From a virus (lineage: Duplodnaviria > Heunggongvirae > Uroviricota > Caudoviricetes), in the IMG/VR virus record IMGVR_UViG_2541047849_000007: 32,016 nt of DNA; one strand, given 5' to 3'. Both the position numbers and the translations under genes were made by a program. Positions within the stretch are counted from its first letter, which is position 1. Each line of letters opens with the position of its first letter. The notes beneath the pieces were generated by a model that saw nothing but the letters and a program-made list of their open reading frames with translations, was not told the DNA's origin and made no database searches. Positions 12,040 to 29,598 of the stretch are shown piece by piece.

Positions 12040-12354
12040 GTGTATTCTGCATACCCCGAACACGCCTCTCTCTTAACGCGCTTTAAAATCCTCCGCGCCA
12101 CGCTTTTGCCATGCTGTCTCCACACAACAAGGAGACATTTTCATGAAACCATTCACTTCCCTTACCCGGACACCACGCAACTGGAACTGCGCCGTGAGCT
12201 TGATTACCTGGCAGATCGCAAAATGGTGGAACTGGAGAGGAGACCGTCCGGTGACTGGTTTGCCGATCTGAGTCGCCTTGGTGTGGATATTGTGGAATAC
12301 ACCGTGGAATGCGGCCCCGGTATTGCCCGCCCGGAAAAATACTGGAGTGAGTGA
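12040..12354 (+). CDS. Hypothetical protein, start undetermined (possible frameshifted gene)
   Basis: Protein-like reading frame runs to a TGA 2 nt before the terS ATG, but has no in-frame ATG with an RBS. The only ATG with a strong RBS (AAGGAGA, ATG 12143) is in the adjacent frame and gives a 42-aa Trp-rich product. Confidence 0.3.
   Translation: MYSAYPEHASLLTRFKILRATLLPCCLHTTRRHFHETIHFPYPDTTQLELRRELDYLADRKMVELERRPSGDWFADLSRLGVDIVEYTVECGPGIARPEKYWSE
12066..12090 (+). promoter_or_regulatory. Candidate late promoter motif, copy 1 (head of late operon)
   Basis: CTCTCTTAA-cgcg-CTTTAAAATC. Shares the TCTTAA-N4-CTTTAA(A/T)ATC pattern with sites at 23227 and 29577. About 50 nt upstream of the first late-operon RBS. 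Confidence 0.4.
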
Positions 12355-12356
12355 TT

Positions 12357-12899
12357 ATGGGACGTCGCAGCAGCATTGATTCTCTGCCGAAGGAGGTCCG
12401 TCGCTGGCTTGAGCGGGCACTGACGGAGAATAATTTCACCGGCTATGCAGAGCTTGAAAGTCTGTTGAAGGAAAAGGGGTACAGCATCACCCGCTCTTCC
12501 CTGCAGCGGTTTGGCTACAAAATGGAGCAGCAACTGGCCCGTGTGCGGGCGGCAACCGAGGCAGCGCGTCTGCTTGCCCGGGAGGCCGGAGACGATCCTG
12601 ATGACCGTTCAGCCGGACTGATAACCCTCGTCCAGACCGAAATGACGGATATCCTGATGCGCCTGCAGGAGTCGCGGGAAAACGACGATCCCTTCGCCCG
12701 GGCAAAACTGCTGGCAACGGCTTCAAAAAATATCGCCACACTGACCCGCGCCTCGGTCAACCTCAAGCGCTATCAGGCAGAAGTCAGAGAGAGGGTTGAA
12801 CGTGCTGCCGCTGCCGCCGAGAAAATTGCCCGTAAGGGCGGGCTCTCTGCGGAAGCCGTACAGGCACTGCGCCGGGAAATTCTGGGGGTGGCGTCATGA
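12357..12899 (+). CDS. Terminase small subunit (Mu gp27-like)
   Basis: 181 aa from ATG 12357. Positioned immediately upstream of, and overlapping (ATGA), the large terminase gene. N-terminal region resembles Mu gp27. Confidence 0.65.
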   Translation: MGRRSSIDSLPKEVRRWLERALTENNFTGYAELESLLKEKGYSITRSSLQRFGYKMEQQLARVRAATEAARLLAREAGDDPDDRSAGLITLVQTEMTDILMRLQESRENDDPFARAKLLATASKNIATLTRASVNLKRYQAEVRERVERAAAAAEKIARKGGLSAEAVQALRREILGVAS

Positions 12900-14419
12900 C
12901 GGAGCTGCCGCCGCACATTCCTGACACCGCGAGTTATGAGACACCGCCGGTTCTGTTGCCTTACCAGCAGCGCTGGGTGGCAGATACCTCTCCGCTTAAG
13001 GTGATGGAAAAGAGCCGTCGTACCGGTATTACATGGGCTGAGGCATCCGATAACGTACTGACCGCAGCCTCTTCTGCGCCTGCAGGCGGGATGAATGTGT
13101 ATTACATCGCCTATAACCAGGATATGACCGTCGAATACATTCAGGCGTGTGCGATGTGGGCGCGGGCATTCAACTATGCGGCCAGTGAAATTGAAGAAGG
13201 ATTCTGGGAGGAGGACGACGACGATAAACACATCAGGACTTACACCATCAAATTTCCTGACTCCGGCTTTCGCATTGTCGCGCTCTCCAGCCGCCCGTCT
13301 AACCTGCGTGGCCGTCAGGGTATTATTGTTATCGACGAAGCGGCGTTCCATGAGCAACTGGACGAACTGCTGAAAGCGGCGCTGGCGATGCTTATCTGGG
13401 GGGGCAAGGTACGCGTTATCTCCACCCATGACGGTGACGACAATCCATTCAGTACGCTTATCGGAGATATCCGTGCCGGACGTCAGGGAGGCAGCGTACA
13501 TCGCATCACTTTCCGGGAAGCCGTATCTGAGGGGCTGTTCCAGCGCGTTTGTCTGCGCACCGGGAAGGAATGGTCGGAGGCATCCGAGCTGGCCTGGATG
13601 GCGTCGGTGTACAAATTCTACGGTGCCGGCGCATCCGAAGAGCTTGACTGTATTCCGGCCAACGGTGGCGGTGCCTGGCTGTCCCGTGCCCTGATAGAGT
13701 CCCGAATGTCCGCTGATACGCCAGTATTGCGTCTGACCTGCAAGGAAGGTTATGAACTGCTGTCTGATGAGGTTCGCTTCCACGAGACACAGGACTGGCT
13801 TGATGAGCATCTGAAACCCTTGCTGGAGGCACTCCCCACTGATGCCCGCTCTTTCCTGGGGCGCGACTTTGGTCGCAGCGGTGATTTGTCGGTGGACTAT
13901 CCCCTGCTGCAGGAGAAGAACCTGGTACGACGCGTGCCATTCGTACTGGAGCTGCGTAACGTGCCGTTCAGACAGCAGGAGCAAATCACCTGGTATCTGA
14001 TGGATGGCCTGCCCGGTCTGCTGGGTGCAGCATTTGATGCCCGTGGTAATGGTGCCTATCTGGCTGAATACGCCATGCAGCGCTACGGCTCCAGCCGGGT
14101 TCAGCAGGTGATGCCAACCGAAGGCTGGTACCGGGAGCATATGCCTCCGGTCAAAGCTGCACTGGAAGACGGTAACCTGCTGGACTTACCAAAAGATGAA
14201 GACACACTGGATGACCTGCGGGCCGTTCAGGTGGTGAACGGTGTCCCCCGCGTGCCGGAACAACGCTCAAAAGCAAAGGCTGATGGTGGTAAACGCCACG
14301 GGGATTCAGCCATCGCACTGGCGCTGGCGTATTTCGCCAGCCGTGAAATTAACAAAGGGCCGGTGAAGGCAAGCTCACGACGTCGTCGTCAGGCGGCCCG
14401 TATGCTGGAGGGATTCTGA
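12896..14419 (+). CDS. Terminase large subunit (Mu gp28-like)
   Basis: 507 aa. Size, position and acidic nuclease-like C-terminal half fit a Mu-type large terminase. Confidence 0.8.
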   Translation: MTELPPHIPDTASYETPPVLLPYQQRWVADTSPLKVMEKSRRTGITWAEASDNVLTAASSAPAGGMNVYYIAYNQDMTVEYIQACAMWARAFNYAASEIEEGFWEEDDDDKHIRTYTIKFPDSGFRIVALSSRPSNLRGRQGIIVIDEAAFHEQLDELLKAALAMLIWGGKVRVISTHDGDDNPFSTLIGDIRAGRQGGSVHRITFREAVSEGLFQRVCLRTGKEWSEASELAWMASVYKFYGAGASEELDCIPANGGGAWLSRALIESRMSADTPVLRLTCKEGYELLSDEVRFHETQDWLDEHLKPLLEALPTDARSFLGRDFGRSGDLSVDYPLLQEKNLVRRVPFVLELRNVPFRQQEQITWYLMDGLPGLLGAAFDARGNGAYLAEYAMQRYGSSRVQQVMPTEGWYREHMPPVKAALEDGNLLDLPKDEDTLDDLRAVQVVNGVPRVPEQRSKAKADGGKRHGDSAIALALAYFASREINKGPVKASSRRRRQAARMLEGF

Positions 14420-15915
14420 TGGCAAAAGGTATCTGGGTTTCACCCGATGAGTTCGTGGCGTTTGCCGAACCCAAAAAGTCACTGACCGCGCAGATTGCCT
14501 CCCGCAGCCGCGCCATCGACTTTTACGCTCTGGGAATGTACCTGCCCAACCCTGATCCCATTCTCAAGGCTCAGGGACGGGATATCCGTATCTACCGCGA
14601 ACTGCGCACCGACCCGCTGGTCGGGGGCTGTATCCGCAGACGTAAAGCAGCGGTCAAATCGCTGGAACGTGGACTGGAGCGCGGTCACGCTTCTGCCCGG
14701 GTCTTCCGTTTCATCCGCGACATGCTCGACGATCTGGATCTGTCCCGCATCATCGGTGAGATGAGCGATGCCGTGCTCTACGGGTATCAGCCCTGTGAAA
14801 TCATGTGGGGCCGTTCGGTCAGGGCGTGGGCGGTGACGGATATTGTCGGCAAACCGCCTGAGTGGTTTCAGTTTGATACGGACAACTGCCTGCGCTTCCG
14901 GGCTCGTGATGCGGGTGTGGAGGGTGAGCTGCTGTCACCGTCAAAATTCGTGGTGCCGGCACAGGATGCCTCGTATGACAATCCTTACGGTTTCCCGGAC
15001 CTGTCCATGTGCTTCTGGCCGGTCGCCTTCAAGAAAGGCGGGATGAAATTCTGGCTCCGCTTTGCCGAAAAGTTTGGCTCCCCCTGGGTCATCGGTAAGC
15101 ACCCGAGGGGTGCAAATGATGCAGAGATTGAAAAACTGCTGGACTCCATGGAGCAGATGGTGGAGGACGCGGTGGCCGCCATCCCTGATGACAGCAGCAT
15201 CGAACTCAAAGCAGCGGATGGCAAGGCGGACAGCAGCGAGGTATTCCGCGAGCTGATCACACTGTCACGCAGTGAGATCTCCATTGCATTACTCGGTCAG
15301 AATCAGACCACGGAAGCGAACAGTAACAAGGCCTCTGCACAGGCCGGGCTGGAGGTGACGGCTGATATCCGCGATGCGGATGCGGACATCATTCAGGCGG
15401 CAGTGAATCAGGTCATAAGAACGGTGGTCACCCTGAACTTCGGCGATGTGCCGTGTCCGGTCTGGGCCATGTGGGAACAGGAGGCCATTGATGACACCCG
15501 TGCCACCCGCGATGAAAAACTCACCCGGGCGGGTCTGCGTCTGACCCCGCAATACTTCAAGCGTGAGTACCAGCTGCAGGACGGCGATATTGACGAGACA
15601 CCACCGTCAGAATGCGAGAAGAACATGCTGCCGCTGTCATTTGCCGAGGCGATTGATGCCGATATTCAGGCTCAGCAGCAGCTTGACGACGCGCTGGACA
15701 TTCTGATGAACGGAGGTGTGTTAAATGGCACGCTGGAACCCGTCCTGGCACCTCTGTTCAGACGGGTCGAAAACGGGGTTAACCCGACTGAGCTGCTGGG
15801 CGAACTGGCGGAGCTCTACCCTCAGATGAACACGGACGATCTGCAGGAGCGGCTGGCCCGTATTCTCTTTGTGGCAAATATCTGGGGGCATCTGCATGAG
15901 CGTGACAACGGCTGA
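14419..15915 (+). CDS. Portal protein (Mu gp29-like, DUF935)
   Basis: 498 aa immediately after the large terminase (TGATG overlap), the standard position for a Mu-like portal. Confidence 0.8.
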   Translation: MAKGIWVSPDEFVAFAEPKKSLTAQIASRSRAIDFYALGMYLPNPDPILKAQGRDIRIYRELRTDPLVGGCIRRRKAAVKSLERGLERGHASARVFRFIRDMLDDLDLSRIIGEMSDAVLYGYQPCEIMWGRSVRAWAVTDIVGKPPEWFQFDTDNCLRFRARDAGVEGELLSPSKFVVPAQDASYDNPYGFPDLSMCFWPVAFKKGGMKFWLRFAEKFGSPWVIGKHPRGANDAEIEKLLDSMEQMVEDAVAAIPDDSSIELKAADGKADSSEVFRELITLSRSEISIALLGQNQTTEANSNKASAQAGLEVTADIRDADADIIQAAVNQVIRTVVTLNFGDVPCPVWAMWEQEAIDDTRATRDEKLTRAGLRLTPQYFKREYQLQDGDIDETPPSECEKNMLPLSFAEAIDADIQAQQQLDDALDILMNGGVLNGTLEPVLAPLFRRVENGVNPTELLGELAELYPQMNTDDLQERLARILFVANIWGHLHERDNG

Positions 15916-16717
15916 ACTGGCGTACTGCATGACGCTTCCCCCGAAGCGGGCAGTCAGCTACCTGAAGTCCAAAGGGTATCAGATTACCTGGGACCAGGAA
16001 GAAATGTGGCAGGACGCCCATGCCCGCGCCTTTACCGTCGCTAAAGTGACCCGCCTGGATATTCTGGAAGATATTCGCGGGACACTGCAGCAGGCTGTTG
16101 ATGAAGGAAAAACCGATCGCTGGTTCCGGCAGGAGCTGGAGCCGGCGCTGAAGCGCAGGGGATGGTGGGGACCGCGTGACACGACTGACCCGGTAACGGG
16201 TGAGCCGGTCACCATTCAGCAGGGCAGTCCGTGGCGGCTCGATACCATCTTTCGCACCAATATGTCCGTACTCTACAGCGCCGGTCGTTGGGCGGAGCAG
16301 ATGGAAAACGTCGACGACAGGCCGTACTGGATGTATACCGGCATCAACGACAGCCATACCCGCAGGAGCCATCTGGCGCTGCATGGTCTGGTGCTGCGCT
16401 GGGATGACCCGTTCTGGCAGGCATTTTACCCGCCGAACGGCTGGCGCTGCCGCTGTAGTGTGATTGCCCTGAGTGCGGCGGATGTACGTGCCCGTGGCCT
16501 GAAGGTTATCAGCTCCGGCTCTGCCATGGGCCAGGAACTGAAACTGGTCTCAGAGAAAACCGGCGAAATGTGGAACGTGGCCACCTTTAATACCGGCACC
16601 ACGAAGGTGACCACCGACGTCGGCTGGTCTTATGCACCGGGGGCAGCATACCGTCCCGACCTGGCCCGCTATCAGGGTACGCTTCAGCCACTGGCACAAC
16701 AGGAACTGAGAGGATAA
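15896..16717 (+). CDS. Head morphogenesis protein (Mu F / gp30-like)
   Basis: About 273 aa from ATG 15896, overlapping the portal end. Position and content fit the Mu F family. Confidence 0.7.
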   Translation: MSVTTAELAYCMTLPPKRAVSYLKSKGYQITWDQEEMWQDAHARAFTVAKVTRLDILEDIRGTLQQAVDEGKTDRWFRQELEPALKRRGWWGPRDTTDPVTGEPVTIQQGSPWRLDTIFRTNMSVLYSAGRWAEQMENVDDRPYWMYTGINDSHTRRSHLALHGLVLRWDDPFWQAFYPPNGWRCRCSVIALSAADVRARGLKVISSGSAMGQELKLVSEKTGEMWNVATFNTGTTKVTTDVGWSYAPGAAYRPDLARYQGTLQPLAQQELRG

Positions 16718-16719
16718 CA

Positions 16720-17178
16720 ATGGCTTCCGATAACCTGGTCAGTGTCACCATTAATGATAAATCCCTGCGCCGGAGCCTCCGTGCGCTGGATCTGGCTGCC
16801 ACAGACATGGAGCCTGCGATGCGCAAAATCGCCGGAACCCTGCTGGCGGAAACACAGTTTAACTTTCTTGATGAGGGGCGTCCGGGGTGGATGCCCTCGC
16901 TGGCAGCGGAAGAACGTAACGGACAGACACTGCAGGATACCGGGCGTCTGATGGGGTCAGTATCAACCGAGCATGACGACCGGCAGGCTGTTGTGGGGAC
17001 CAACGTTGTTTACGGTGCCATTCACCAGTTCGGGGGTAAAACGGGGCGTAATGAGTCTGTTGAACTTCCGGCCCGCCCGTTCCTGCCGGTGACGGAGGAT
17101 GGAGAGCTACAGCCTGAAGTGGTAGTCCCCATCCTCGATACCATTGTCCGCCATCTTGAAGCAGCGGCCCGTCGCTGA
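16720..17178 (+). CDS. Virion morphogenesis protein (Mu G-like)
   Basis: 152 aa; position and size match Mu G. GAGAGGA RBS. Confidence 0.65.
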   Translation: MASDNLVSVTINDKSLRRSLRALDLAATDMEPAMRKIAGTLLAETQFNFLDEGRPGWMPSLAAEERNGQTLQDTGRLMGSVSTEHDDRQAVVGTNVVYGAIHQFGGKTGRNESVELPARPFLPVTEDGELQPEVVVPILDTIVRHLEAAARR

Positions 17179-17318
17179 GTTTTCTCTCTTCAGGCGGGTG
17201 ATTTATCATTGCCAGCGAATGAGGGGCTGTATTACCTTTATAAAGGCTTTACAGCCTCTGTTTTATAACTGCCTCCGGTTCACCACATTGCTTTCCCTGT
17301 CCTTCTCCCCTGATGTTT

Positions 17319-17337
17319 TCTAAAGCAGATTAAAATC
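17319..17337 (+). promoter_or_regulatory. Candidate late promoter motif, copy 2 (upstream of I; weaker match)
   Basis: TCTAAA-gcag-ATTAAAATC about 55 nt upstream of ATG 17393. One base shorter than the other copies. Confidence 0.3.
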
Positions 17338-17392
17338 GCCGGGCCCGCATTTCTCACAAACTGTCTCCGACAACATAACGCGGGACAGCAAA

Positions 17393-18508
17393 ATGTCAGC
17401 CATTCACATTTTTAAAGCCGGTACTCATACCGATATGCACGGCAAAAAACTGCCGTTCACGCCAGACGATCTTGCCGCCTGCGTGAAAGCCTATGACCCG
17501 TCCGTCCATGAAGCACCACTCGTGATTGGTCATCCCAGAACGGAAGACCCGGCGTGGGGCTGGGTGAAAGCCCTGTCGCTCAGCGGCGTCGATCTGATGG
17601 CAGAGCCTGCCCAGCTGGACCCGCAGTTTGCTGAGATGGTCACCGACGGACGATTCAAAAAAGTGTCTGCCTCTTTCTACCTCCCGGATTCACCGTCCAA
17701 TCCGAAGCCCGGCGTGCTCTACCTGCGCCATGTGGGCTTTCTTGGGGCACAGCCACCTTCCGTCAAAGGACTGAAACAGGTGTCCTTCAGTGAGCAGGAA
17801 GAAGGTGTGGTGGAGTTCGCCGACTGGCAGGCCATCACGAATGCCTCACTGTGGGGAAAGCTGCGCGATTTTCTGATCGCCCGCTTCAGTCTGGACGAAG
17901 CAGAAAAAGTTCTGCCGGAATGGCAGCTCAACAGTCTGCGCGAAGAGGCGTACCGCGACACACCGTCGCAGGATGCAGCAGGTGCGCAATTCAGTGAGAC
18001 AGGCCAGGTGCCGTCTTCCGCAAGTAACGAGGAATCATCGATGACAAAAGAAGAGATTGAAGCCCTTCAGGCGGAGAACCGCCGCCTGAAGCAGCAGGCT
18101 GCTGATCGCGATGCGCGTGATGCACAGGTCAGACAGGAGCAACTGCATAAGGACAATGTGGCCTTTGCAGAAAAACTGGTCGCAGAGGGCCGTCTGGCTC
18201 CCCGCGCCTCCTCCGTGGTGGTTGCCCTGCTGGATGCCGTCGCCGGTGGCGACAAGCCGGTGGAGTTTGCTGAGGGGGAAAGCCGCACACCGCTGGCCAC
18301 CGCCTTCCGTTCGCTGCTCTCCGACGGGGAGCCGGTGATGAACTTCGCCGAACAGGCCACGAAGGAGCGTGTCGGCGACACGGTGAAAGTGGATGTGACG
18401 GAGTTTGCAGAAGCCGACCCTGACCGTCTGGCACTGCACCAGAAGGCTGTGGAACTGTCGAAAAAAGAAGGCATCAGCTATGAGGCTGCTGTCACACGCT
18501 GCCTGTAA
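17393..18508 (+). CDS. Head protease/scaffold protein (Mu I-like)
   Basis: 371 aa with a coiled-coil, acidic C-terminal half (scaffold-like). Located between the G-like and major capsid genes as in Mu. Confidence 0.75.
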   Translation: MSAIHIFKAGTHTDMHGKKLPFTPDDLAACVKAYDPSVHEAPLVIGHPRTEDPAWGWVKALSLSGVDLMAEPAQLDPQFAEMVTDGRFKKVSASFYLPDSPSNPKPGVLYLRHVGFLGAQPPSVKGLKQVSFSEQEEGVVEFADWQAITNASLWGKLRDFLIARFSLDEAEKVLPEWQLNSLREEAYRDTPSQDAAGAQFSETGQVPSSASNEESSMTKEEIEALQAENRRLKQQAADRDARDAQVRQEQLHKDNVAFAEKLVAEGRLAPRASSVVVALLDAVAGGDKPVEFAEGESRTPLATAFRSLLSDGEPVMNFAEQATKERVGDTVKVDVTEFAEADPDRLALHQKAVELSKKEGISYEAAVTRCL

Positions 18509-18517
18509 GGAGAAAGC

Positions 18518-19471
18518 ATGTCTGATTACTTAAAAAATAAACGCGTTGTTGATCCTGTTATGACCAGCATCGCGCGTGGCTACAGGAATGCAGCCTTCAT
18601 CGGAGAACATATATTTCCGGTTGTGTATACGGACAGAGAAGCGGTAACGGTCCCCGTTTTCGGGAGATCAGCGTTTGTGGAAGTTGATACCGTCCGTGCT
18701 GTGGGGGCAGACAGTAATGTTCTGATCAGGGAAAAGAGCAGTACGCTGGATCTGGTGTTGCATGAGCACGATCTTGCTGCACCTGTGGACTACCGTGAAC
18801 AGACGGAGTCAATGTTCAACGAAGAGGCCAAGGCAATCCGGCGGGTGACAAATGGCATTCATCTTCGCCGTGAGCTTATTGCTGCCCGTCTTGCGCAGGA
18901 CAAAAAAGTGTACCCGGCATCTTCGGTAAAGACGATGACGTCTGTTGAACGCTGGGAAGGAGGCCATGGTGATCCTGTTGAGGTCATTGAGGGAGGCATT
19001 GAAGCTGTGCGAAGTAAGATCGGGGTCAGACCCAATCTGATGGTCATGGGAGCCAGTGTGATGCCCCTGCTGAGATATCATCCAGCCATCACCACTGCTC
19101 TGGGACTTAATGAGAGAAAACGGATCACCCCGCAAATCCTCAGGGAGCTTTTTGGTCTGGACAAGGTCATTGTGGGTGAGCCTGTTTCCATGGCATCCAT
19201 GACTGATGCAGGCAACCGGAACAAATATCCGGTGGACATCTGGGGAGATAATCTCATGCTCTTCTATGTCACTCCACCGCGAGAAGGTGCCGAAAGTGCC
19301 GACGAAAATGAACCATCGTTCGGGTATACCCTGCGACGTAAGGGGATGCCGGTGGCAGATAAATACGATGGAGTGGGCGGAAAGGTGAAGTACTGCCGTT
19401 ATACCGACATCTATAAGGTGGCGGTCGTGGGCGGGGATGCCGGTTATCTCGTTACAAATATAGTGAAGTAA
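18518..19471 (+). CDS. Major capsid protein (Mu T-like)
   Basis: 317 aa with a strong RBS (AAGGAGA), following the protease/scaffold gene. Confidence 0.8.
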   Translation: MSDYLKNKRVVDPVMTSIARGYRNAAFIGEHIFPVVYTDREAVTVPVFGRSAFVEVDTVRAVGADSNVLIREKSSTLDLVLHEHDLAAPVDYREQTESMFNEEAKAIRRVTNGIHLRRELIAARLAQDKKVYPASSVKTMTSVERWEGGHGDPVEVIEGGIEAVRSKIGVRPNLMVMGASVMPLLRYHPAITTALGLNERKRITPQILRELFGLDKVIVGEPVSMASMTDAGNRNKYPVDIWGDNLMLFYVTPPREGAESADENEPSFGYTLRRKGMPVADKYDGVGGKVKYCRYTDIYKVAVVGGDAGYLVTNIVK

Positions 19472-19481
19472 GGAGAAGTCT

Positions 19482-19817: not shown

Positions 19818-19818
19818 G

Positions 19819-20729: not shown

Positions 20730-20980
20730 TGAAAGCATACCGCTATTCCGGCCCGGCCAGCGGCGTCACGCTGTCGGACGGAACCGAAATCCTGCTCTGG
20801 CCGGGGAAGACGTTTTCCCTGCCGGAGGAGCATGACTACGTGAAGGTACTGGTGGCGCTGAAACATCTGACGCCGGTACCTGAAGAGACTAAACTCGCCG
20901 GCACACCGGCTGTGCAGTCACCAAAGCGCAGAAGCAGCAGTGACAGCGAAGTGAAAACGGAGGACACCCATGGCAGCTAA
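20729..20980 (+). CDS. Hypothetical protein (about 83 aa)
   Basis: ATG 20729 overlaps the upstream stop (TGATG); GAGGAA RBS. The track begins 3 nt earlier at a GTG. Confidence 0.5.
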   Translation: MKAYRYSGPASGVTLSDGTEILLWPGKTFSLPEEHDYVKVLVALKHLTPVPEETKLAGTPAVQSPKRRSSSDSEVKTEDTHGS

Positions 20981-22918: not shown

Positions 22919-22920
22919 CG

Positions 22921-23202
22921 GTGAGTGTTGAACTGACGGATAAAGGAGGACGATGTGCGGCACTGGGCATGTCAAATGGTACGTGGTTTACCCTCCTTGA
23001 TATTCCGGGGGTGGAAACCCTTTTTAATACCCGTAAAACCAATGACCCGATTGACTGCACACGTTCAAAGGCCCGCAGACTGGCGGATTTGATTGAAGCA
23101 TGGGAGCCTCCCGACCACTGGTTCTCCGGCACCGGCAAATCTGAGGGAAAGACGCTTCTCATCGCTTTCCTGCGTAACTGCAAGGGGTTTCGCACTTGCT
23201 GA
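22921..23202 (+). CDS. Hypothetical protein (non-ATG start; uncertain)
   Basis: Track ORF starts at GTG 22921, 2 nt after the tube stop. The first in-frame ATG (22969) has no well-spaced RBS. Confidence 0.3.
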   Translation: MSVELTDKGGRCAALGMSNGTWFTLLDIPGVETLFNTRKTNDPIDCTRSKARRLADLIEAWEPPDHWFSGTGKSEGKTLLIAFLRNCKGFRTC

Positions 23203-23209
23203 CATCACA

Positions 23210-23234
23210 GGGGCTCCGGCCCCTTCTTCTTAAT
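23210..23234 (+). terminator. Putative partial terminator after the sheath/tube unit
   Basis: AGGGGC-tccg-GCCCCT hairpin followed by TCTTCTTAATCT. Confidence 0.4.
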
Positions 23235-23248
23235 CTCCTTTAATATCC
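23227..23248 (+). promoter_or_regulatory. Candidate late promoter motif, copy 3 (upstream of tail chaperone/TMP)
   Basis: CTTCTTAA-tctc-CTTTAATATC, identical outside the 4-nt spacer to the copy at 29577. About 51 nt upstream of ATG 23300. No recognisable -35. Confidence 0.45.
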
Positions 23249-23299
23249 GTCACGCGCTTCTCCCGACATACTGCCCTGAACTTACACAGGAGCACAATC

Positions 23300-23635
23300 A
23301 TGTCACAGACCCCATCCGATACTTTTAAATTGTCTTATCCCTTCACCACTGCTGCAGGCACCAGAATTGAGCTGGTTGAACTGAAACGCCTGACGGTAAA
23401 AGACCTGAAGCAGGTGCGCAAAATCAGCAAAAACCCGGCAGACTGGGACGAACCGCTGATTGCCCGCAGTACTGGTCTTCTCCCGGAAGATCTCGACAAT
23501 ATGGATCTGGCTGATTACCTGCAGTTACAGAAACGATTTCAGCTCATCACGGGGATGGGTGAGAGCGACAAAGGCGCTGACGCAGGCGCAGGGGCTGCTG
23601 GCGAGATGGTTCCGGTTTCAGCCGGGGGAGATTGA
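23300..23635 (+). CDS. Tail assembly chaperone (P2 E-like)
   Basis: 111 aa between the tube and tape measure genes. Gly/Ala-rich C-terminus ending in a G-run next to its stop. Confidence 0.6.
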   Translation: MSQTPSDTFKLSYPFTTAAGTRIELVELKRLTVKDLKQVRKISKNPADWDEPLIARSTGLLPEDLDNMDLADYLQLQKRFQLITGMGESDKGADAGAGAAGEMVPVSAGGD

Positions 23636-23717
23636 TGCCCTCGATACTGACGATCTGGAGATGTGGCTGGAGCAGGCTGAAGAGCAAATAAAAAGCGAGT
23701 ACGGCGACAAATCATAG
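23300..23717 (+). CDS. Predicted frameshift-extended tail chaperone (requires a +1 shift near 23624-23630)
   Basis: A protein-like +1 frame (ARWFRFQPGEIDALDTDDLEMWLEQAEEQIKSEYGDKS) is open across the 3' end of the chaperone ORF and stops at 23717. The -1 frame is also open but reads as Arg/Trp-rich junk. Confidence 0.4.
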
Positions 23718-23792
23718 TACAGACAGCCGCCAGTAGCGGCTGTTCTGCGTTATCCCCTCACGTCTTTTCACCTTCCCCGGAGGTTAACCACT

Positions 23793-26744
23793 ATGTCGGG
23801 ACAGTTTTCAGTCGGCGTTGTTATCGGCGGGATGATTGGCAGCACATTCCGTTCTGCAATGAGCGGTACCCGCCGTGCGCTTGATTCCCTGAGCGATACC
23901 TCACGCCGCCTGCAGGAACGTCAGAACGCTTTAACCCGTGCAACAGAACGTTATGGTCAACTGGGCTCTTCCCGGATGCAGCATCTCAACAGCGAGCTGC
24001 TGCGGGTAAGCCGCACCATGGAGCAAATTGAGCGCCAGCAGCGCCGTCTGTCAGCGGCATCAGCCACCAGTGATGCGCTGAAAGCTAACCGCATGGCGCT
24101 GTATGGTCAGGGGATTGAAGCGTATGGCATGGCACAGACTGTTTATCATACGGTTTCCCCTGCCGTTCAGCAGTCCATGTCTTTTCAGGACAAAATGATT
24201 GATATGTCGATCACCGCAAAATATGACAATAAAACGCGGGATGCACTTGCCGGACAGATAAAAGGCTGGGCGCAAAAATACAATCAGTATCAGGATGAAC
24301 TGCAGGAGGCGGTGGGTTCGCTCATCAGCGACAATATTGATAACTTGTCAGATATCGGTTTTCTGATGCCGGATATTGCCCGCGCGGCAACGGCAACACG
24401 CACGTCATCTCAGGACTGGGCAAAAGTGGCCGCAGTCTGGCAAAACTCCCTGAAAGGTGCGGCCAGAGATTTTAGTGCCGTCCAGAATATTATGGCTTAT
24501 GCCGGTGACCAAGGGTCATTTGAAATCCCGGATCAGGTCAAGTGGATGCAGTCCCTGGCCCCAATGATGGCGGGTATTGCCAGTGGAAAAGAGGCTGTTG
24601 CTGAAATCGGGGCCAGTCTCCAGATAGCAAAAATCGGTGCGGGCTCCACCGACGAAGCAGCCAATAATTTTAAAAACTTTCTTACCAAAATTTTTGCCCG
24701 CGATACTCAGAAACAGTTTGCTGATCTGGGTATTGATTTGCAGGGTTCTGTTGCGAGTTATAAGGCTGCGGGGATCTCTCCGATTGAAGGGATGTTGAGT
24801 GTTATAGAACGTTACCTCAATGCCAAAAGCCCCGAAGCGCTGGCCGGCTTCAAATCCGCCATGAAAATAAAGAATGATACGGCAAGAGATGAGGCACTTC
24901 AGGCTCTGGCGAAAAACTTTGGTCTGGGCGATATGTTCGCGGATATGCAGGTCATGGCATTTATCCGCCCGATGCTGGCCAACATGGACAGATATCGCGA
25001 GATCCGTGCCGGTGCTCTCAGGGCTGCGGATAACGATTTGCTTGCCAGTGCTTACGATCAGCGGCTGAAATCTCCCCTTGAAGCCACTAAAGCGCTTATG
25101 GTCAGCAGTCGCGATCTGGCTATTACGCTGGGCGATCAGCTCGCCCCCTCTTTTATTTCTCTGACTCAGGAGCTGATCCCACTCATTCAGGGGGCAAAAC
25201 ACTGGGTGGCGACTCACCCGCAATTTGTCAGTGGGGCTTTTAAGCTCATCAGTGCGCTCCTTGCGATTAAGATAGCGACTGTTGGTCTCAAACTGGGGCT
25301 GAATCTCCTTATTTCCCCCTTTGTGAACGTCTGGAAAACTGCTGTTTTACTCCGGACCAACTGGCATCGACTGACTACCGCACTAGGAGAAGGTGGCAAA
25401 TTACGCTGGCTTGTCACTGGATTTAGCCGACTGACCAGCGGAGGACTGAAACTCAGCAAAGTTCTGGCGGGCAGCCTCGTTCGCGGTTTTATGAGCGCTG
25501 CACGTGCCGTTCTCTGGATTGGGCGAGCGCTGATGATGAATCCCATCGGTCTCGTTATCACCGCTGTCGCGGCAGCAGCTTACCTTATCTACCGCAACTG
25601 GGGGACAGTCAGTGGCTGGTTTAAACAGCGCTGGGCTGACATTCAGGAAGCCTTTAACGGCGGTATCGCGGGAACTGGTAAGCTGCTGATTAACTGGTCG
25701 CCGGCAGGGCTGCTCTATAAAGCCTTTGCGGCTGCGCTGAAATATTTCGGCGTTGCTCTGCCGGCAAAGTTCACCGACTTCGGTGGCCATCTTGTCGACG
25801 GTCTGATTAACGGTATCAAAAACAAATGGGGGTCGCTCAAATCCAGTGTAACCGGAATGGGTGACAGCATCAGTAGCTGGTTTAAACAGTGCTGGTCTGA
25901 CATTCAGGAGGCCTTTAACGGCGGTATCGCGGGAACTGGTAAGCTGCTGATTAACTGGTCGCCGGCAGGTCTGCTCTATAAAGCCTTTGCAGCTGCGCTG
26001 AAATATCTTGGTGTTGATCTGCCGGCAAAGTTCACCGACTTCGGTGGCCATCTTGTCGACGGTCTGATTAACGGTATCAAAAACAAATGGGAGTCGCTCA
26101 AATCCAGTGTAACCGGAATGGGTGACAGCATCAGTGGCTGGTTCAGTGAAAAGCTGGGTATTCATTCGCCGAGCCGCGTGTTTATGGGCTTTGGTGACAA
26201 TATCGCGCAGGGGGCCGCCATTGGCCTGCAGCGGAGCACTCCGATTGCAGCTCTGGCCGGGCAGCGAATGGCCAGTGAACTGCTCCCCAGAATGCCCGTG
26301 AGCATTCAGGGGCCAGAAATACGGGATAACACTTCAGGTGTTCGCTTCAGTATGCCGTTGCCCGATATCAACGGGTTTATGTCGTCTGCTAAAAATGCGA
26401 TCGGATCCGTAATCAATAGTTTGTCTTCCATGCCCGCTATTCCGATCTCCACCCGGGCATCGACTTTACCAGGTCAACGTCTGGCAAATGAGATGACACC
26501 GGATGTTCCCCGTATCCCCTCGCCTGAAATCCTGGCTGCCGGATATTCAGGCCGTGGTGCAGCTGCAACCGGCGGTGGAACGTCTGGTGGTATCCAGGTC
26601 AGCTTTAATCCTCAGTTTTTCCTCAATGGCAGGGAAACCACAGCGCCTGCAGGACTGACTGGTGCCCTGAATATGAGTCTGCATGAGCTGGAAAAAATGC
26701 TGGAGCGTCTGCTGGCTCAGAAACAACGTAAGGAGTACCGCTGA
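23793..26744 (+). CDS. Tail tape measure protein
   Basis: 983 aa, mostly helical with Gly-rich segments, downstream of the chaperone pair. Contains an internal 87-aa tandem duplication. Confidence 0.85.
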   Translation: MSGQFSVGVVIGGMIGSTFRSAMSGTRRALDSLSDTSRRLQERQNALTRATERYGQLGSSRMQHLNSELLRVSRTMEQIERQQRRLSAASATSDALKANRMALYGQGIEAYGMAQTVYHTVSPAVQQSMSFQDKMIDMSITAKYDNKTRDALAGQIKGWAQKYNQYQDELQEAVGSLISDNIDNLSDIGFLMPDIARAATATRTSSQDWAKVAAVWQNSLKGAARDFSAVQNIMAYAGDQGSFEIPDQVKWMQSLAPMMAGIASGKEAVAEIGASLQIAKIGAGSTDEAANNFKNFLTKIFARDTQKQFADLGIDLQGSVASYKAAGISPIEGMLSVIERYLNAKSPEALAGFKSAMKIKNDTARDEALQALAKNFGLGDMFADMQVMAFIRPMLANMDRYREIRAGALRAADNDLLASAYDQRLKSPLEATKALMVSSRDLAITLGDQLAPSFISLTQELIPLIQGAKHWVATHPQFVSGAFKLISALLAIKIATVGLKLGLNLLISPFVNVWKTAVLLRTNWHRLTTALGEGGKLRWLVTGFSRLTSGGLKLSKVLAGSLVRGFMSAARAVLWIGRALMMNPIGLVITAVAAAAYLIYRNWGTVSGWFKQRWADIQEAFNGGIAGTGKLLINWSPAGLLYKAFAAALKYFGVALPAKFTDFGGHLVDGLINGIKNKWGSLKSSVTGMGDSISSWFKQCWSDIQEAFNGGIAGTGKLLINWSPAGLLYKAFAAALKYLGVDLPAKFTDFGGHLVDGLINGIKNKWESLKSSVTGMGDSISGWFSEKLGIHSPSRVFMGFGDNIAQGAAIGLQRSTPIAALAGQRMASELLPRMPVSIQGPEIRDNTSGVRFSMPLPDINGFMSSAKNAIGSVINSLSSMPAIPISTRASTLPGQRLANEMTPDVPRIPSPEILAAGYSGRGAAATGGGTSGGIQVSFNPQFFLNGRETTAPAGLTGALNMSLHELEKMLERLLAQKQRKEYR
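25617..26140 (+). repeat. Tandem duplication (2 x 261 bp, about 96% identical) inside the tape measure gene
   Basis: Unit beginning TGGTTTAAACAG recurs 261 bp later. The protein repeat is WFKQ(R/C)W(A/S)DIQEAFNGGIAGTGKLLINWSPAGLLYKAFAAALKY ... FTDFGGHLVDGLINGIKNKW(G/E)SLKSSVTGMGDSIS. Confidence 0.85.
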
Positions 26745-27628
26745 TGTTTGCCGTACTGGGTGATATTGAGTTTGATCTGATTACCTACTGGGACGGCTTC
26801 GAGGCCACGTTCGGCGTCGATTATGCGGAGCATGCCCGCATCGGGGGTAAGCCTGGCCTGCAGTTCGTCGGCGACAGGCTGGACGAAATCCAGATAAGTC
26901 TGGTCTTCCATCAGCATTATTGTGCACCCGATGTGGAGCTGGCGAGACTGCGAACAACCATGAAAGCCCATCAGGCACTGGCGCTGGTCTTCGGCAACGG
27001 TGACTATCGTGGCTGGTTCGTGATTACCGATGTGACCGCAACCAGCGAGCAGACAGACAGCACCGGTAACGTGCTGGCTGTCAGTGCCACCGTGTCTCTC
27101 CGGGAATACACCGGTGATCCGAAAAATCCTCTGCAACCACCGGCAATACGCACGAAGCTCCCGGGTGTCGGGGCGGTCTCCGGTGCCATTCCTTCACCTT
27201 CAGGGGTGGCGCAGTTCATCCGCAACGGCGTCAACTATGCGAAACAGGCGCAGTCTGTACTCCAGACCACTATCAGCGCCGTTCGGGTGACACAGAAAAT
27301 GAAGGATAACCCCGTTGTCGCACTGACCCGTGTGCCGGGGCTGATGAGCGGACTGGGTAATATCTCCGGGGCTCTGGGGAAAAGTGTTCCGGCGTTTAAC
27401 GCACTCTCTGAATCCATGCCCGATGCCATCAGTCTGGCCAGAACAGCCAGCGAAGCAGCCACGTATGTACAGCAGGCACAGTCTGCGCTGAGTGGTGTGG
27501 ACAAAAGAAATATTGCAGGTGCTCTGGATACCGTTTCCGGGCAGCTTAACGCCGCCAGCACAGCATTCAACCGCATGTCTCCGGGATTAAGTGCAATGGC
27601 CGCCAGAATACTGACGAGGAGTGTGTGA
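26744..27628 (+). CDS. Tail protein (P2 gpU / Mu N DNA-circulation family)
   Basis: 294 aa directly after the tape measure gene (1-nt overlap TGATG). N-terminus MFAVLGDIEF ... is gpU-like. Confidence 0.55.
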   Translation: MFAVLGDIEFDLITYWDGFEATFGVDYAEHARIGGKPGLQFVGDRLDEIQISLVFHQHYCAPDVELARLRTTMKAHQALALVFGNGDYRGWFVITDVTATSEQTDSTGNVLAVSATVSLREYTGDPKNPLQPPAIRTKLPGVGAVSGAIPSPSGVAQFIRNGVNYAKQAQSVLQTTISAVRVTQKMKDNPVVALTRVPGLMSGLGNISGALGKSVPAFNALSESMPDAISLARTASEAATYVQQAQSALSGVDKRNIAGALDTVSGQLNAASTAFNRMSPGLSAMAARILTRSV

Positions 27629-27840
27629 TGTTTCTTGAACATGTTACCCGTGACGGAGAGCGCTGGGATTCGCTGGCATGGCAGTACTACGGTGACCCGC
27701 TGGGCTATCCCCGGATTATTGCCGCCAATCCGCACGTGGCCATCACGCCGGTGCTGCCCTCCGGGCTGTTGTTACTGATCCCGGTGATTGAGGCTGAAGA
27801 AGCCCGTACAGAAGAGGATATTGCCCCATGGCTGAGATAA
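27628..27840 (+). CDS. Tail protein X (P2 gpX-like)
   Basis: About 70 aa from ATG 27628. Size and position between the gpU-like and gpD-like genes fit P2 X. Confidence 0.55.
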   Translation: MFLEHVTRDGERWDSLAWQYYGDPLGYPRIIAANPHVAITPVLPSGLLLLIPVIEAEEARTEEDIAPWLR

Positions 27841-28982
27841 ACAGCACTGCGCAAGTCACATCAGCGTTAACCAGCGTCAGCGATGTGCTGACACCGGTGT
27901 TCACTCTGTGGTATCTGCAGAAAAACATCACCTCTGATATCGCGCCTTATGTCACCCGTGTGACCTGGAGCGATAACATCAAAAATGAGTCCGATACCAT
28001 TGAGGTGGAGCTGGACGACACCGATGGCCGCTGGCTGGATAAGTGGTATCCGGGCAAGGGTGACACGCTGACGCTGAAAATGGGCTATCAGGGCGAGAAG
28101 CTGCTGTCCTGCGGTACGTTCTCTATAGACGAGATCGAAGTGAGTTCGCCCGCTTCCGTTGTTTCTATCCGTGGGGTGGCCACCTCGGTTAACAGTGCTC
28201 TGCGGACTAAAACCAGTCGTGGTTTTGAGAACACCACGCTGGCAGCTGTTGCGGGGCGGATTGCCAGAAAGCACCGACTGAAACTGGTGGGCAGCATTGA
28301 GTCCATCAGAATCGACCGGGTGACCCAGTATGCTGAAACCGACGTGGGTTTTCTGCGCCGGCTGGCCAGCGAGTATGGTTATGCAGTGAAAGTGGTCAGT
28401 GACCAGCTGATTTTTTCTCATCTGGCCACACTGCGCAGTCAGGAGCCGGTCAGGCAGTTAAAACCGCAGGATGTGGCCCGCTTTTCCCTGCGTGACACCA
28501 TCAACCGGGTCTATAAATCTGCAAAGGTAAAACACCAGAAAAGCAGCAGTAAAAAACTGATCGTCTACGAAGCTGATGGTGGTACCCGTGAAAGCGACAA
28601 AAAGCTCAAAGGTGGTAAGGTTACCAGCGCTGACTCACTTAAAGTTAACAGCCGCGTCAGCGACCCGGACAGTGCCCGGATTAAAGCGGATTCAGCACTG
28701 GCCAGACATAACGAATACCAGCAGAACGGCTCCCTGACGCTGACGGGAACACCTCAACTGACAGCAGGCAACAAAATTGAACTGGTGGGTTTTGGGCAGT
28801 TATCCGGGCCATGGCTCATAACCACTGCCCGCCATGCGTTTGACCGTAACAGCGGCTACACCACAGAGCTGGAAGTGGCACGGGGGCCAGTCACAAGAGG
28901 GAAAAAACAAAAAACTCAGAAACTCACGGTTTATCACCCGGATGGCAGTACATCGACGGTGATTAAGGAGAAGAAAAAATGA
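27828..28982 (+). CDS. Late control D-like tail/baseplate hub protein (P2 gpD / Mu P)
   Basis: 384 aa; size and order match P2 gpD. Confidence 0.75.
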   Translation: MAEINSTAQVTSALTSVSDVLTPVFTLWYLQKNITSDIAPYVTRVTWSDNIKNESDTIEVELDDTDGRWLDKWYPGKGDTLTLKMGYQGEKLLSCGTFSIDEIEVSSPASVVSIRGVATSVNSALRTKTSRGFENTTLAAVAGRIARKHRLKLVGSIESIRIDRVTQYAETDVGFLRRLASEYGYAVKVVSDQLIFSHLATLRSQEPVRQLKPQDVARFSLRDTINRVYKSAKVKHQKSSSKKLIVYEADGGTRESDKKLKGGKVTSADSLKVNSRVSDPDSARIKADSALARHNEYQQNGSLTLTGTPQLTAGNKIELVGFGQLSGPWLITTARHAFDRNSGYTTELEVARGPVTRGKKQKTQKLTVYHPDGSTSTVIKEKKK

Positions 28983-29575
28983 CTGGTGTCACTCGTCAGG
29001 TCGGTACGGTCAGTGCCGTTGATGCCGACAGGGTTCAGGCCCGCGTTCGTCTGCCTGAATGCGATAACCTGCGCACAAACTGGCTTAACGTGCTGCAGCG
29101 CAATACCCAGGATAACAAAGATTACTGGCTCCCTGACGTGGGGGAGCAGGTTGAGGTGCTGCTCGATGCCAACGGCGAGGATGGTGTTATTCTGGGCGCG
29201 GTGTATTCAGACGTCGATAAACCACCGTTCAGTGACAAAAATATCCGGGGAACCCGGTTTGCTGATGGTGCAGAGTACAGCTACAACCGGAAGACGCACA
29301 CTCTGACCATCCGGGGCGGCATTGAGCATATTGTCATTGAGTGTGGTGCTGATGTGGTATTGAAAACACAGAAAGCCACGATTGACGCACCGGAAACCGA
29401 ACTTACCGGAGATCTGCGTGTCAGGGGAAAGCTGATTTACGAAGGAGGCATGGCGGGTTCTGGTGGTAAAGGTGTTACCGCGACCATCCATGGCAATATC
29501 GAGATTAAAGGGAATGCCCATGCCACGGGCAGTATGCTGTCTGATGGCGAAAACTCCAGCCACCACTCCCACTGA
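28979..29575 (+). CDS. Baseplate assembly protein V / spike (P2 gpV-like)
   Basis: 198 aa with a strong RBS (AAGGAG). Gly-rich C-terminus ending in a His-rich tip (SSHHSH), as seen in spike proteins. Confidence 0.7.
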   Translation: MTGVTRQVGTVSAVDADRVQARVRLPECDNLRTNWLNVLQRNTQDNKDYWLPDVGEQVEVLLDANGEDGVILGAVYSDVDKPPFSDKNIRGTRFADGAEYSYNRKTHTLTIRGGIEHIVIECGADVVLKTQKATIDAPETELTGDLRVRGKLIYEGGMAGSGGKGVTATIHGNIEIKGNAHATGSMLSDGENSSHHSH

Positions 29576-29576
29576 G

Positions 29577-29598
29577 CTTCTTAAACGCCTTTAATATC
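29577..29598 (+). promoter_or_regulatory. Candidate late promoter motif, copy 4 (upstream of baseplate W)
   Basis: CTTCTTAA-acgc-CTTTAATATC immediately after the V stop and about 31 nt upstream of ATG 29630. Confidence 0.45.

Follow-up and report, generated by a model that had tools for sequence, protein, structure and literature searches.

A conserved dyad before the late genes of a BcepMu-type prophage of Escherichia coli as the likely operator of a single Mor/C-family activator

The late genes of a BcepMu-type transposable prophage of E. coli are preceded at four places by the same DNA element, and we consider it likely, by analogy with phage Mu, that this element is the operator of the single Mor/C-family activator that the prophage encodes. 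The motif keeps a fixed geometry with a downstream hexamer, a fixed position relative to the genes and its sequence across the lineage; binding by the Mor homologue, the transcription start sites and the dependence on the activator we infer. A sequence-only reading of the window (the whole stretch of DNA analysed, 32,016 nucleotides) had proposed that a motif was repeated before the late operon, the chaperone and tape measure genes and baseplate gene W. This is confirmed here by exact matches to TCTTAA-N4-CTTTAAWATC, all on the + strand, at 12071-12090, 23228-23247 and 29579-29598. With up to three mismatches allowed there were still three matches in the window (0.18 expected from shuffles), and the tetranucleotide pair TTAA-N6-TTAA occurred in the 32 kb only three times, at these same sites. 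Moreover, CTTCTTAA-N3-CCTTTAATATC was common to 23226-23247 and 29577-29598, with 19 of the 22 positions identical and 0 matches expected. The copy near 17319, which had been described as weaker, was found at 17318-17337 with four mismatches from the pattern first proposed, but it proved to be a full member of the set. In fact, a model built from distant relatives only gave it the top score in the window, 37.1 bits, and the four sites together scored 33.6-37.1 bits with that model, while the maximum in shuffled sequence averaged 5.1 and reached 17.9 at the most; a chance origin of the motif was ruled out by these shuffles. This window scan with the distant-clade model is the cross-clade test, the other scans of the lineage having been carried out with a model trained on the same lineage. 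All four sites were within short non-coding gaps immediately upstream of genes. The original count of four was nevertheless too low, as the window has five dyads, the fifth being on the opposite strand. The activator gene, the sites and their predicted -10 hexamers are the following:

748-1146, - strand: sole Mor/C-family activator gene, last gene of the leftward early operon; its product is the presumed dyad binder
12071-12090, + strand: predicted P-lys activator site, TCTTAACGCGCTTTAAAATC, with the dyad core TTAA-N6-TTAA at 12073-12086
12110-12115, + strand: predicted P-lys -10, CATGCT, preceded by TGC (extended -10); predicted start at about 12122 (A)
17318-17337, + strand: predicted P-I activator site, TTCTAAAGCAGATTAAAATC, before protease/scaffold gene I (17393-18508)
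17357-17362, + strand: predicted P-I -10, CAAACT; predicted start at about 17369 (G)
23228-23247, + strand: predicted P-tail activator site, TCTTAATCTCCTTTAATATC, before the tail assembly chaperone gene (23300-23635)
23267-23272, + strand: predicted P-tail -10, CATACT; predicted start at about 23279 (A)
29579-29598, + strand: predicted P-W activator site, TCTTAAACGCCTTTAATATC, before baseplate wedge gene W (29630-29977)
29618-29623, + strand: predicted P-W -10, AATACT, followed by 6 nt and the ATG of W at 29630; predicted start at the A of that ATG
10849-10868, - strand: fifth dyad, CCCTAAACCACATTAACAGA, followed by 19 nt and CATCAT (10824-10829), upstream of the dam methylase gene; predicted start at about 10817

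The chaperone and W assignments agree with Pfam matches to Phage_TAC_7 and GPW_gp25, respectively. When relatives were scanned, about 40 phages and prophages, with Enterobacterales, Burkholderia, Ralstonia and Iodobacter as hosts, proved to carry this element in front of the same four genes, those for the holin, protease/scaffold I, the tail chaperone and baseplate W. Among complete relatives, the four top sites were at these positions in PhiKM, KP12, Phi06_2974B, BcepMu, phiE255 and Ralstonia phage YO107_2, and the scan of a genome collection added about 35 prophage loci with the same arrangement. The site homologous to P-lys precedes the holin gene in intact relatives and is followed, at the same distance, by CATGCT, GATGCT, AAAACT or CAAGAT, and the P-tail dyad of BcepMu is degenerate (TTAA-N6-CTGA). 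As to recurrence in coding regions or unrelated genomes, the sites were intergenic only, and matches on the late-gene strand numbered 134 in 962 kb of BcepMu-like loci, while other Mu-like elements had 2 in 430 kb. Chromohalobacter phage YPCBV-1, the fecal contig MT835710 and alphaproteobacterial Mu-like loci shared the head genes but the motif was absent from them. Within E. coli, the region around P-lys (window 10700-12900) was matched in 564 of 5426 complete genomes.

The core of the element is a 16-bp imperfect dyad, T-Y-T-A-A-N6-T-T-A-A-W, with YTAA-N6-TTAA as its conserved centre. At all sites an xAxxxT hexamer was located exactly 19 nt after the 20-mer motif, that is, 22 bp downstream of the dyad. 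The A at its second position and the T at its sixth were each kept in 97 of the 100 unique sites, its first base was essentially never T, and its columns were not part of the model used to find the sites. The 19-nt spacer was freely variable (less than 0.4 bit per column) while motif and hexamer were conserved, and at P-tail the spacer diverged even among relatives that were 83% identical. On this evidence, the downstream hexamer is likely a weak sigma-70 -10. A start 7 nt after it fits the spacing of kept hexamer, 6-7 nt and ATG described below and would place the dyad centre at -42.5 to -43.5, overlapping the -35 position. At 16-18 bp spacing, matches to TTGACA did not exceed 3 of 6, in agreement with the earlier remark that a -35 is lacking, and a sigma-70 consensus scan of the window picked up none of the four sites, so that canonical sigma-70 promoters were rejected for them.

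A hexamer inside the motif, TAAAAT or TAATAT, had instead been taken as the -10, in which case transcription would start about 7 nt after the motif with the activator on or near that element. We consider this placement very unlikely and rejected it because the last T is not conserved. Both hexamers match a -10 well in the window, and the conserved hairpins found downstream would then fall in 5' leaders, where 5' stem-loops are common. However, the last base was G (TAAAAG) in 41 of the 100 unique sites, and the P-tail sites of Ralstonia and Iodobacter read TAACTG. A G at -7 is incompatible with sigma-70 -10 recognition. Such a placement would also leave unexplained the invariant A and T 19 nt downstream, the fixed distance from the hexamer to the ATG of W and the identity in spacing with Mu Pm, a promoter with a mapped start.

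The protein encoded at 748-1146 had been assigned to the Mor/C family, and this was borne out by a match to Pfam PF08765 (Mor) that covered the full model (E = 1.1e-43). Identity reached 31% with Mor and 35% with C of Mu. Each BcepMu-like genome carried one Mor/C homologue, versus two in Mu, and no second activator gene was found in BcepMu-like genomes. In a by-eye alignment, the helix-turn-helix positions that contact DNA in MuC (contacts from a preprint) had W in the window protein where Mu Mor has T and S where it has K, a difference that counts against the operator reading. Permanganate data for Mu Pm set +1 at Mu coordinate 9224 (PMC4287176), which puts the -10, TATCCT, at -13 to -8 and makes the published Mor dyad (-51 to -36) AGTAAAGCCGGTTAAT. 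The Pm operator is thus a 16-bp imperfect dyad, AGTAA-AGCCGG-TTAAT, centred near -43.5 and with half-sites of the same xTAA-N6-TTAx type as here. Half-sites, 6-bp gap and 22-bp dyad-to-hexamer distance are the same at Mu Pm and in the window, both have a weak -10 without a -35, and the activator genes belong to the same Pfam family and are last in their early operons. Of the 16 positions of its P-I dyad, BcepMu shares 13 with the Mu Pm dyad and 11 with the P-I dyad of the window. When Mu was scanned with the lineage model there was no match of at least 17 bits; since Pm is below this threshold, the link to it was made through geometry and published coordinates, and the likeness concerns geometry and half-sites and does not extend over the full length. 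These features uphold the proposal that the motif is the recognition element of the Mor/C-family protein, and the absence of a -35, the four late units, the conserved gene positions and the geometry of Mu Pm make activator-dependent late promoters the best reading of the sites.

That the dyad is bound by some other protein, the Mor homologue acting elsewhere, is in our view highly improbable. The candidates would be the Ner-like or IclR-like helix-turn-helix proteins (8806-9355), a phage HU-like protein, or host IHF or Fis; the motif is AT-rich, as are many nucleoid-protein sites, and further helix-turn-helix proteins are indeed encoded in the window. Compared by eye with the IHF consensus, WATCAANNNNTTR, the motif shows no fit. 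Against any such binder stand the fixed distance from the motif to a -10-like hexamer at the heads of late operons, the match in half-site, gap and position to the Mor operator of Mu, and a conservation across E. coli, Burkholderia and Iodobacter hosts that points to a phage-encoded factor. A role at the RNA level or in termination (as processing site, translational operator or terminator tail) is the least probable of all and can be practically discounted. In its favour, the P-tail motif directly follows a terminator hairpin, with its T-rich 5' part doubling as terminator tail, and there are conserved RNA hairpins a short way downstream. A hairpin is however absent immediately before the motif at three of the four sites, the dyad is one of DNA and serves on the opposite strand too, the sequence of the motif is itself unstructured and matches no Rfam family, and the -10-like hexamer would be left unaccounted for.

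The likeness to Mu had been drawn with its C-activated late promoters, and it holds for Mor/C-type promoters in general, the closest analogue being however Mor at Pm and not C at the late promoters. Mu C acts at four late promoters that are activator-dependent, have a -10 without a -35 and have the centre of their dyad at -43.5 (PMC2582627). Relative to the genes, the lys and I promoters of Mu are placed as P-lys and P-I are, the Mu PI hexamer, CAAACT, is also that of P-I in the window, and a DNA-modification gene is under late control in Mu (mom) and probably here (dam). In contrast, the C half-sites at Pmom are TTAT-N6-ATAA, whereas those of the window are TTAA/TTAA, and the -10 follows the right half-site by 24 nt in Mu C promoters and by 23 nt here; the window sites are accordingly not C-type operators (TTAT/ATAA, 24 nt). 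The tail promoters precede genes different from those in Mu because the tail module of the window phage is P2-like. P2 and P4 likewise have four late promoters without a -35, which Ogr/Delta activates, and the tail genes of that myovirus are of the P2 type found here; the activator Ogr, a zinc-finger protein, has as its recognition sequence TGT-N12-ACA, with the centre near -55. By inspection, no such sequence was visible upstream of the four sites, and the regulator of the window is of the Mor family.

With the motif taken as operator of the Mor homologue, and with Mor at Mu Pm as the model, the last gene of the leftward early operon would supply the activator, which would bind two TTAA-type half-sites in adjacent major grooves, overlapping the -35 position. 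It would then recruit the host RNA polymerase through the alpha C-terminal domain and sigma-70 region 4 and switch on four rightward late units: lysis, packaging and head genes from P-lys, protease, capsid, sheath and tube genes from P-I, tail chaperone, tape measure and V from P-tail, and baseplate and fibre genes from P-W. Leftward transcripts for the dam methylase and for an inserted P-loop gene would probably be activator-driven too. Mor in Mu serves a single promoter, from which the second activator C is expressed, whereas here the Pm-type operator would be found at between four and six late promoters, with a cascade of two tiers (early, then late) versus three in Mu. Published dRNA-seq tables for B. 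cenocepacia J2315, an uninduced BcepMu lysogen, list few start sites in the prophage (for instance, one that precedes gp20 by 21 nt and another inside gp48) and none at the late-promoter positions. Such silence is what one would expect of promoters that need their activator to fire, and it neither fixes nor contradicts the predicted starts. In the searchable literature, the BcepMu genome paper being outside this scope, we found no start-site, footprint or reporter data for late promoters of the BcepMu group and no description of late regulation in these prophages.

The fifth dyad scored 24.4 bits with the distant-clade model, compared with 17.9 for the largest shuffle value. The dam methylase gene is downstream of it at 9913-10677 (- strand), and equivalents of the dyad were present in PhiKM, KP12, Phi06_2974B and other loci. 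A further hexamer was found on the leftward side of P-lys:

12044-12049, - strand: P-lys divergent hexamer, CAGAAT, separated by 19 nt from the P-lys dyad in its - strand reading; predicted start at about 12036-12038

This hexamer may belong to a divergent promoter that serves the P-loop NTPase gene at 11463-12011 (- strand). Read on the - strand, the P-lys dyad scored 19.1 bits, and CAGAAT was also found in KP12, with unrelated flanks. A reverse-strand xAxxxT was present in 17 of 23 P-lys contexts versus 6 of 80 at the other three dyads, which suggests that the P-lys (holin-promoter) dyad is used in both directions.

The geometry of P-W predicts a leaderless W mRNA. In every clade the hexamer was followed by 6-7 nt and the ATG of W, despite a W N-terminal peptide that varies in length among clades, and the same arrangement was found at gene I in Burkholderia, Ralstonia and Iodobacter phages, the annotated I start of phiE255 being precisely the ATG 6-7 nt after the hexamer. 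The P-W hexamer is in the loop of an inverted repeat, GGGGGC/GCCCCC (29612-29629). In per-sequence folds, conserved hairpins spanned the predicted starts, with bases just upstream of the start pairing with the ribosome-binding site; such hairpins could mean instead that transcripts start further upstream than predicted. The alignment fold of the P-I leader gave a weak consensus (-3.1 kcal/mol, two compensatory pairs) since loop lengths vary among clades, and the per-sequence folds were much clearer. Rfam, searched with the whole window at gathering thresholds, gave no match, the only hit being a meaningless miRNA one (E = 0.47) near the dam leader. At two of the four sites a terminator-like hairpin stands ahead of the motif, and two elements upstream of sites are the following:

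23209-23224, + strand: terminator-like hairpin, AGGGGCTCCGGCCCCT, with a T-rich tail extending into the P-tail motif
17225-17266, + strand: palindrome plus T-run after the G-like gene, containing CTTTATAAAGGCTTTACAG at 17236-17254

The first probably ends the P-I transcription unit, and BcepMu has GGCCCGCTTCGGCGGGCCTTTTTT at the equivalent place. The sequence contained in the second is deeply conserved about 81 bp upstream of the P-I dyad, its distance to P-I being 61, 71, 81 or 102 bp.

More tentatively, the late promoters of the lineage may be insulated modules in which fold-back hairpins, a two-way operator and a phased upstream element are linked. Should this be so, 6-8 bases upstream of the start would pair with the ribosome-binding site, or close a hairpin abutting a leaderless AUG, in such a way that only transcripts from the activator-dependent start would give translatable RNA, and read-through from the repressor side or from an upstream operon would be silenced. 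The P-lys dyad would fire to the right into the lysis genes and to the left into dam and inserted cargo genes, and the conserved sequence that precedes P-I, in the centre of the genome, would either work together with the P-I operator or be the counterpart of the Mu strong gyrase site. Fold-back inhibition against outside transcription was reportedly described for IS10/Tn10 by Davis, Simons and Kleckner in 1985. In IS10, bases immediately before the native start pair with the ribosome-binding site and read-through RNA is poorly translated, a pairing pattern similar to that found here; unlike in IS10, the candidate fold-back of the window phage would act at internal late promoters, including a leaderless one.

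Activator-driven late control is the expected kind of phage control element, and one that a Mu specialist would expect, but the exact layout of the element departs from what was first proposed. For the BcepMu-type group, the analysis provides a map of five operators and six predicted start sites, a consensus sequence and a two-tier cascade with one activator. With the consensus, late operons can be annotated, start codons corrected (as for W and I, predicted to be leaderless) and induction reporters designed, in a group of transposable prophages that is common in E. coli and found also in Klebsiella, in plant and insect pathogens and in Burkholderia. In this lineage, the Pm-type operator of Mu appears as an ancestral-looking design for late control.

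The window is a transposable prophage of the BcepMu type (genus Bcepmuvirus). Its identity is 95% to Escherichia phage PhiKM, falling to about 83% for Klebsiella phage KP12 and phage Phi06_2974B. The early genes, among them those for the transposase (5776-7545) and a Mor-family protein (748-1146), are read leftward from ~11 kb; the late genes are read rightward from ~12 kb. A sequence-only reading had proposed that the 20-mer TCTTAA-N4-CTTTAAWATC heads the late units, and exact copies are indeed present at 12071, 23228 and 29579, all on the + strand, the copies taken from 23226 and 29577 agreeing at 19 of 22 positions. Up to three mismatches added no further match in the window (0.18 expected), and TTAA-N6-TTAA occurs three times in the 32 kb, always at these sites. 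A copy at 17318 had been called weaker; it does carry four mismatches to the pattern, but not a lower rank, since it is among the four best matches to a distant-clade model trained only on relatives with an I protein <70% identical to that of the window. Scanned on both strands with this model, the window gave the four sites as its best matches, at 33.6-37.1 bits; in shuffled windows the best match averaged 5.1 bits and never exceeded 17.9. All four lie in short gaps immediately 5' of a gene.

Proposed late promoter sites of the window (all + strand): motif position, proposed -10 hexamer, hairpin at the predicted start and following gene
12071, P-lys: CATGCT; hairpin 12113-12136; ATG at 12143 of a truncated holin ORF
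17318, P-I: CAAACT; hairpin 17360-17386; protease/scaffold gene I from 17393
23228, P-tail: CATACT; hairpin 23270-23292; tail assembly chaperone gene (Pfam Phage_TAC_7) from 23300
29579, P-W: AATACT; hairpin 29612-29629; baseplate wedge gene W (Pfam GPW_gp25) from 29630

For comparison we used six relatives, complete or nearly so (PhiKM, KP12, Phi06_2974B, BcepMu, phiE255 and Ralstonia phage YO107_2) and a further 55 prophage loci found by their major head protein in a one-genome-per-species collection. In every BcepMu-like element the top late-strand matches were the same four, 5' of holin, I, tail chaperone and W, in hosts that include E. coli, Klebsiella, Photorhabdus, Xenorhabdus, Pectobacterium, Dickeya, Brenneria, Serratia, Burkholderia, Ralstonia and Iodobacter. 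The motif was absent from Mu, Chromohalobacter phage YPCBV-1 and the alphaproteobacterial Mu-like elements scanned. Nor is it equally common outside this group, as 134 late-strand matches were counted in 962 kb of BcepMu-like DNA versus two in the remaining 430 kb.

Across 100 unique sites, TAA at positions 4-6 of the 20-mer, TTAA at 13-16 and A at 18 were invariant, and the core is therefore a dyad, YTAA-N6-TTAA (as a 16-mer, T-Y-TAA-N6-TTAA-W). The 19 bases that follow are essentially free: relatives 83% identical to the window already differ from it there, with the flanking elements kept. Exactly 19 nt past the 20-mer stands an xAxxxT hexamer, represented outside the window by GATGCT, AAAACT, CAAGAT, GATGAT, CAACAT, GACAAT, GATACT, GAAAAT and others. 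Its columns lay outside the search model used to find the sites; A2 and T6 were each present in 97 of the 100 and G came next in 88. Conservation of A2 and T6, with a base other than T at position 1, marks a weak sigma-70 -10 element. As had been noted, there is no usable -35 (best match 3/6), and a generic sigma-70 scan picked up none of the four sites. P-lys alone among them has a TGn extended -10 directly 5' of the hexamer (12107-12109, +), also seen in P-lys of close enteric relatives (TGT GATGCT), which could lend the lysis promoter some activator-independent activity. The spacers of P-I (17343-17356) and P-W (29603-29617) contain a CCCGCA(C) string that also occurs in those of Mu Plys and PI (Mu 10420-10440 and 17985-18005); a 10-bp match between the Mu lys and I promoters has reportedly been noted, and the recurrence could be a common spacer element or chance.

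The earlier placement of the -10 inside the motif, at TAAAAT or TAATAT, is unlikely on the aligned sites, because that hexamer ends in G at 41 of the 100 (TAAAAG, in Burkholderia and Ralstonia phages and many enteric P-I sites) and some P-tail sites read TAACTG, neither of which is tolerable in a -10. Taking the downstream hexamer as the -10 explains a fixed geometry: in every clade W shows the hexamer, 6-7 nt and an ATG, in spite of a variable length of the N-terminal peptide that precedes the conserved WQPAL, and gene I of Burkholderia, Ralstonia and Iodobacter phages shows the same (examples are 29618-29632, +, in the window, 18849-18864 in BcepMu and 19340-19355 in the reoriented locus L005). 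This ATG is the annotated I start of phiE255. A start site 7 nt past the hexamer would therefore give leaderless messages, as is predicted for W in all clades and for I in the phages of those three genera. The seventh base after the hexamer is a purine at all four sites (12122 A, 17369 G, 23279 A, 29630 A). For BcepMu gp32 the annotated start (18850) probably lies 14 nt upstream of the true one, which is likely the ATG at 18864. As expected for an uninduced BcepMu lysogen, dRNA-seq of J2315 lists no start sites at the late-promoter positions.

When RNA is taken from 9 nt 5' of the hexamer, a hairpin of -9 to -21 kcal/mol forms in every clade and in each of the four promoter classes; taken from the predicted start, the RNA is unstructured (0 to -5 kcal/mol). 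Bases -8 to -1 (e.g. CTGTCTCC) pair with the Shine-Dalgarno region (GGAGACAG) or, in an alternative form, the hairpin is closed around the hexamer, with the leaderless AUG directly after it (GGGGGC AATACT GCCCCC ATG). The arms vary in sequence between clades with complementarity kept, and their G-U pairs are workable only in + strand RNA. These may be ordinary 5' leader hairpins, the predicted start sites being wrong and the true start lying upstream. With starts just past the hexamer, the hairpins may instead keep read-through transcripts untranslatable, which fits the -10 evidence; IS10 uses such untranslatable read-through against outside transcription.

Terminator-like hairpins at 17225-17266 and 23209-23224 probably close the first two units just 5' of the next promoter. 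The former holds, as part of its palindrome, an element CTTTATAAAGGCTTTACAG (core 17236-17254, +) that is kept between diverging flanks in phages from those of E. coli to those of Burkholderia and Iodobacter. Its distance upstream from the P-I motif is 61, 71, 81 or 102 bp, spacings suggestive of helical phasing, and its reverse complement is similar to a degenerate Mor-type site (GTAA-N6-TATA). It occupies the G-I gap at the genome centre, the place of the strong gyrase site in Mu.

The gene at 748-1146, previously assigned to the Mor/C family, encodes a full-length Mor-family member, whose identity is 31% to Mor and, over a shorter span, 35% to C. It is the last gene of the early operon, as is mor in Mu; BcepMu-like genomes each have one member of the family versus two in Mu. 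The operators of Mu Mor and C are imperfect dyads of 16 bp, with their centre at -43.5, at promoters with a -10 and without a -35 (PMC2582627, PMC4287176). Permanganate-reactive bottom-strand T residues of the Mor-activated middle promoter Pm are at -12, -4, -1, +1, +3 and +4 (PMC4287176), and the sole register of the Mu sequence that fits them has +1 at Mu 9224, so that the -10 TATCCT falls at -13 to -8 and the published dyad (-51 to -36) is AGTAAAGCCGGTTAAT. This dyad equals the motif described here in half-sites (xTAA / TTAx), 6-bp gap and 22-bp distance to the hexamer, and 13 of its 16 positions are shared by the BcepMu P-I dyad, CGTAAAGCCGATTAAA. In contrast, C-dependent promoters of Mu have TTAT-N6-ATAA, one base pair further from the -10. 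According to a recent preprint Mor and C touch two adjacent major grooves, consistent with half-sites 10 bp apart. Dyad binding by the Mor homologue, activator dependence and the start sites are what we infer. Residues 113-117 of the homologue (796-810, -) form a C-terminal QGRLF (QRDLF in BcepMu gp01) resembling the beta-clamp-binding motif QPDLF / QL[SD]LF, recently shown to be needed for MuC-dependent transcription (PMC12867686); late transcription may likewise be coupled to replication here.

Two further arrangements read leftward.

Leftward dyad readings in the window
10868-10849 (-): fifth dyad, then 19 nt and CATCAT (whole 10824-10868), 5' of the dam methylase gene
12044-12088 (-): P-lys dyad read in reverse, hexamer CAGAAT at 12049-12044, 5' of an inserted P-loop NTPase gene

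The fifth dyad scored 24.4 bits with the distant-clade model. Where there is no insertion between dam and holin (e.g. Phi06_2974B), the reversed P-lys dyad is followed by 19-20 nt, its own xAxxxT hexamer and the conserved dam leader. KP12 has the CAGAAT hexamer of the window, with unrelated flanks. Reverse-strand hexamers were found in 17 of 23 unique P-lys contexts versus 6 of 80 at the other three dyads. The symmetric operator therefore appears to drive promoters in both directions, and in relatives without the insertion one dyad seems to suffice for both holin and dam. Two leftward genes lie between dam and P-lys (10870-12011, -), one for a P-loop NTPase of 182 aa with a weak AAA_35 match, the other a 71-aa ORF. 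Phi06_2974B lacks them at that position, and they seem to be inserted cargo that brought along or acquired its own dyad copy. Between the dam-side hexamer and dam there is a strong conserved hairpin (10776-10815, both strands; GACCAGCCCGGTG...CACCGGGCTGG) with no match to an Rfam family. Since a T-rich run follows it on the + strand, it could terminate transcription that reads through rightward from the repressor side; alternatively, it may be a structure in the 5' leader of the dam message.

Around the first motif copy the window is 100% identical to the E. coli Ec1117 prophage (L065) apart from a clean 2151-bp deletion (junction 12164/12165; missing stretch L065 5466-7616), which was found in no complete E. 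coli genome of the collection. Lost with it are codon 8 onward of the holin gene, the genes for the SLT endolysin, a spanin-like protein and a membrane protein, and ~40 codons at the start of a gp26-like gene. Because the lysis genes are deleted and P-lys now heads a 42-codon out-of-frame ORF (12143-12271), this prophage is expected to have lost the ability to lyse its host.

No description of the late promoters or Mor operator of BcepMu-type phages was found in the literature searched. Mor/C-activated promoters are a well-known kind, to which the BcepMu-type set is an added case; plausible variant features of this set are a lone activator, late genes with a Pm-type operator, bidirectional operator use, a W message without a leader, and fold-back hairpins. 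Most likely, a single Mor-type activator, produced late in the early operon, would bind the dyad at about -43 and bring RNA polymerase to the weak -10 elements heading the four late units, and the outcome would be a two-tier cascade.
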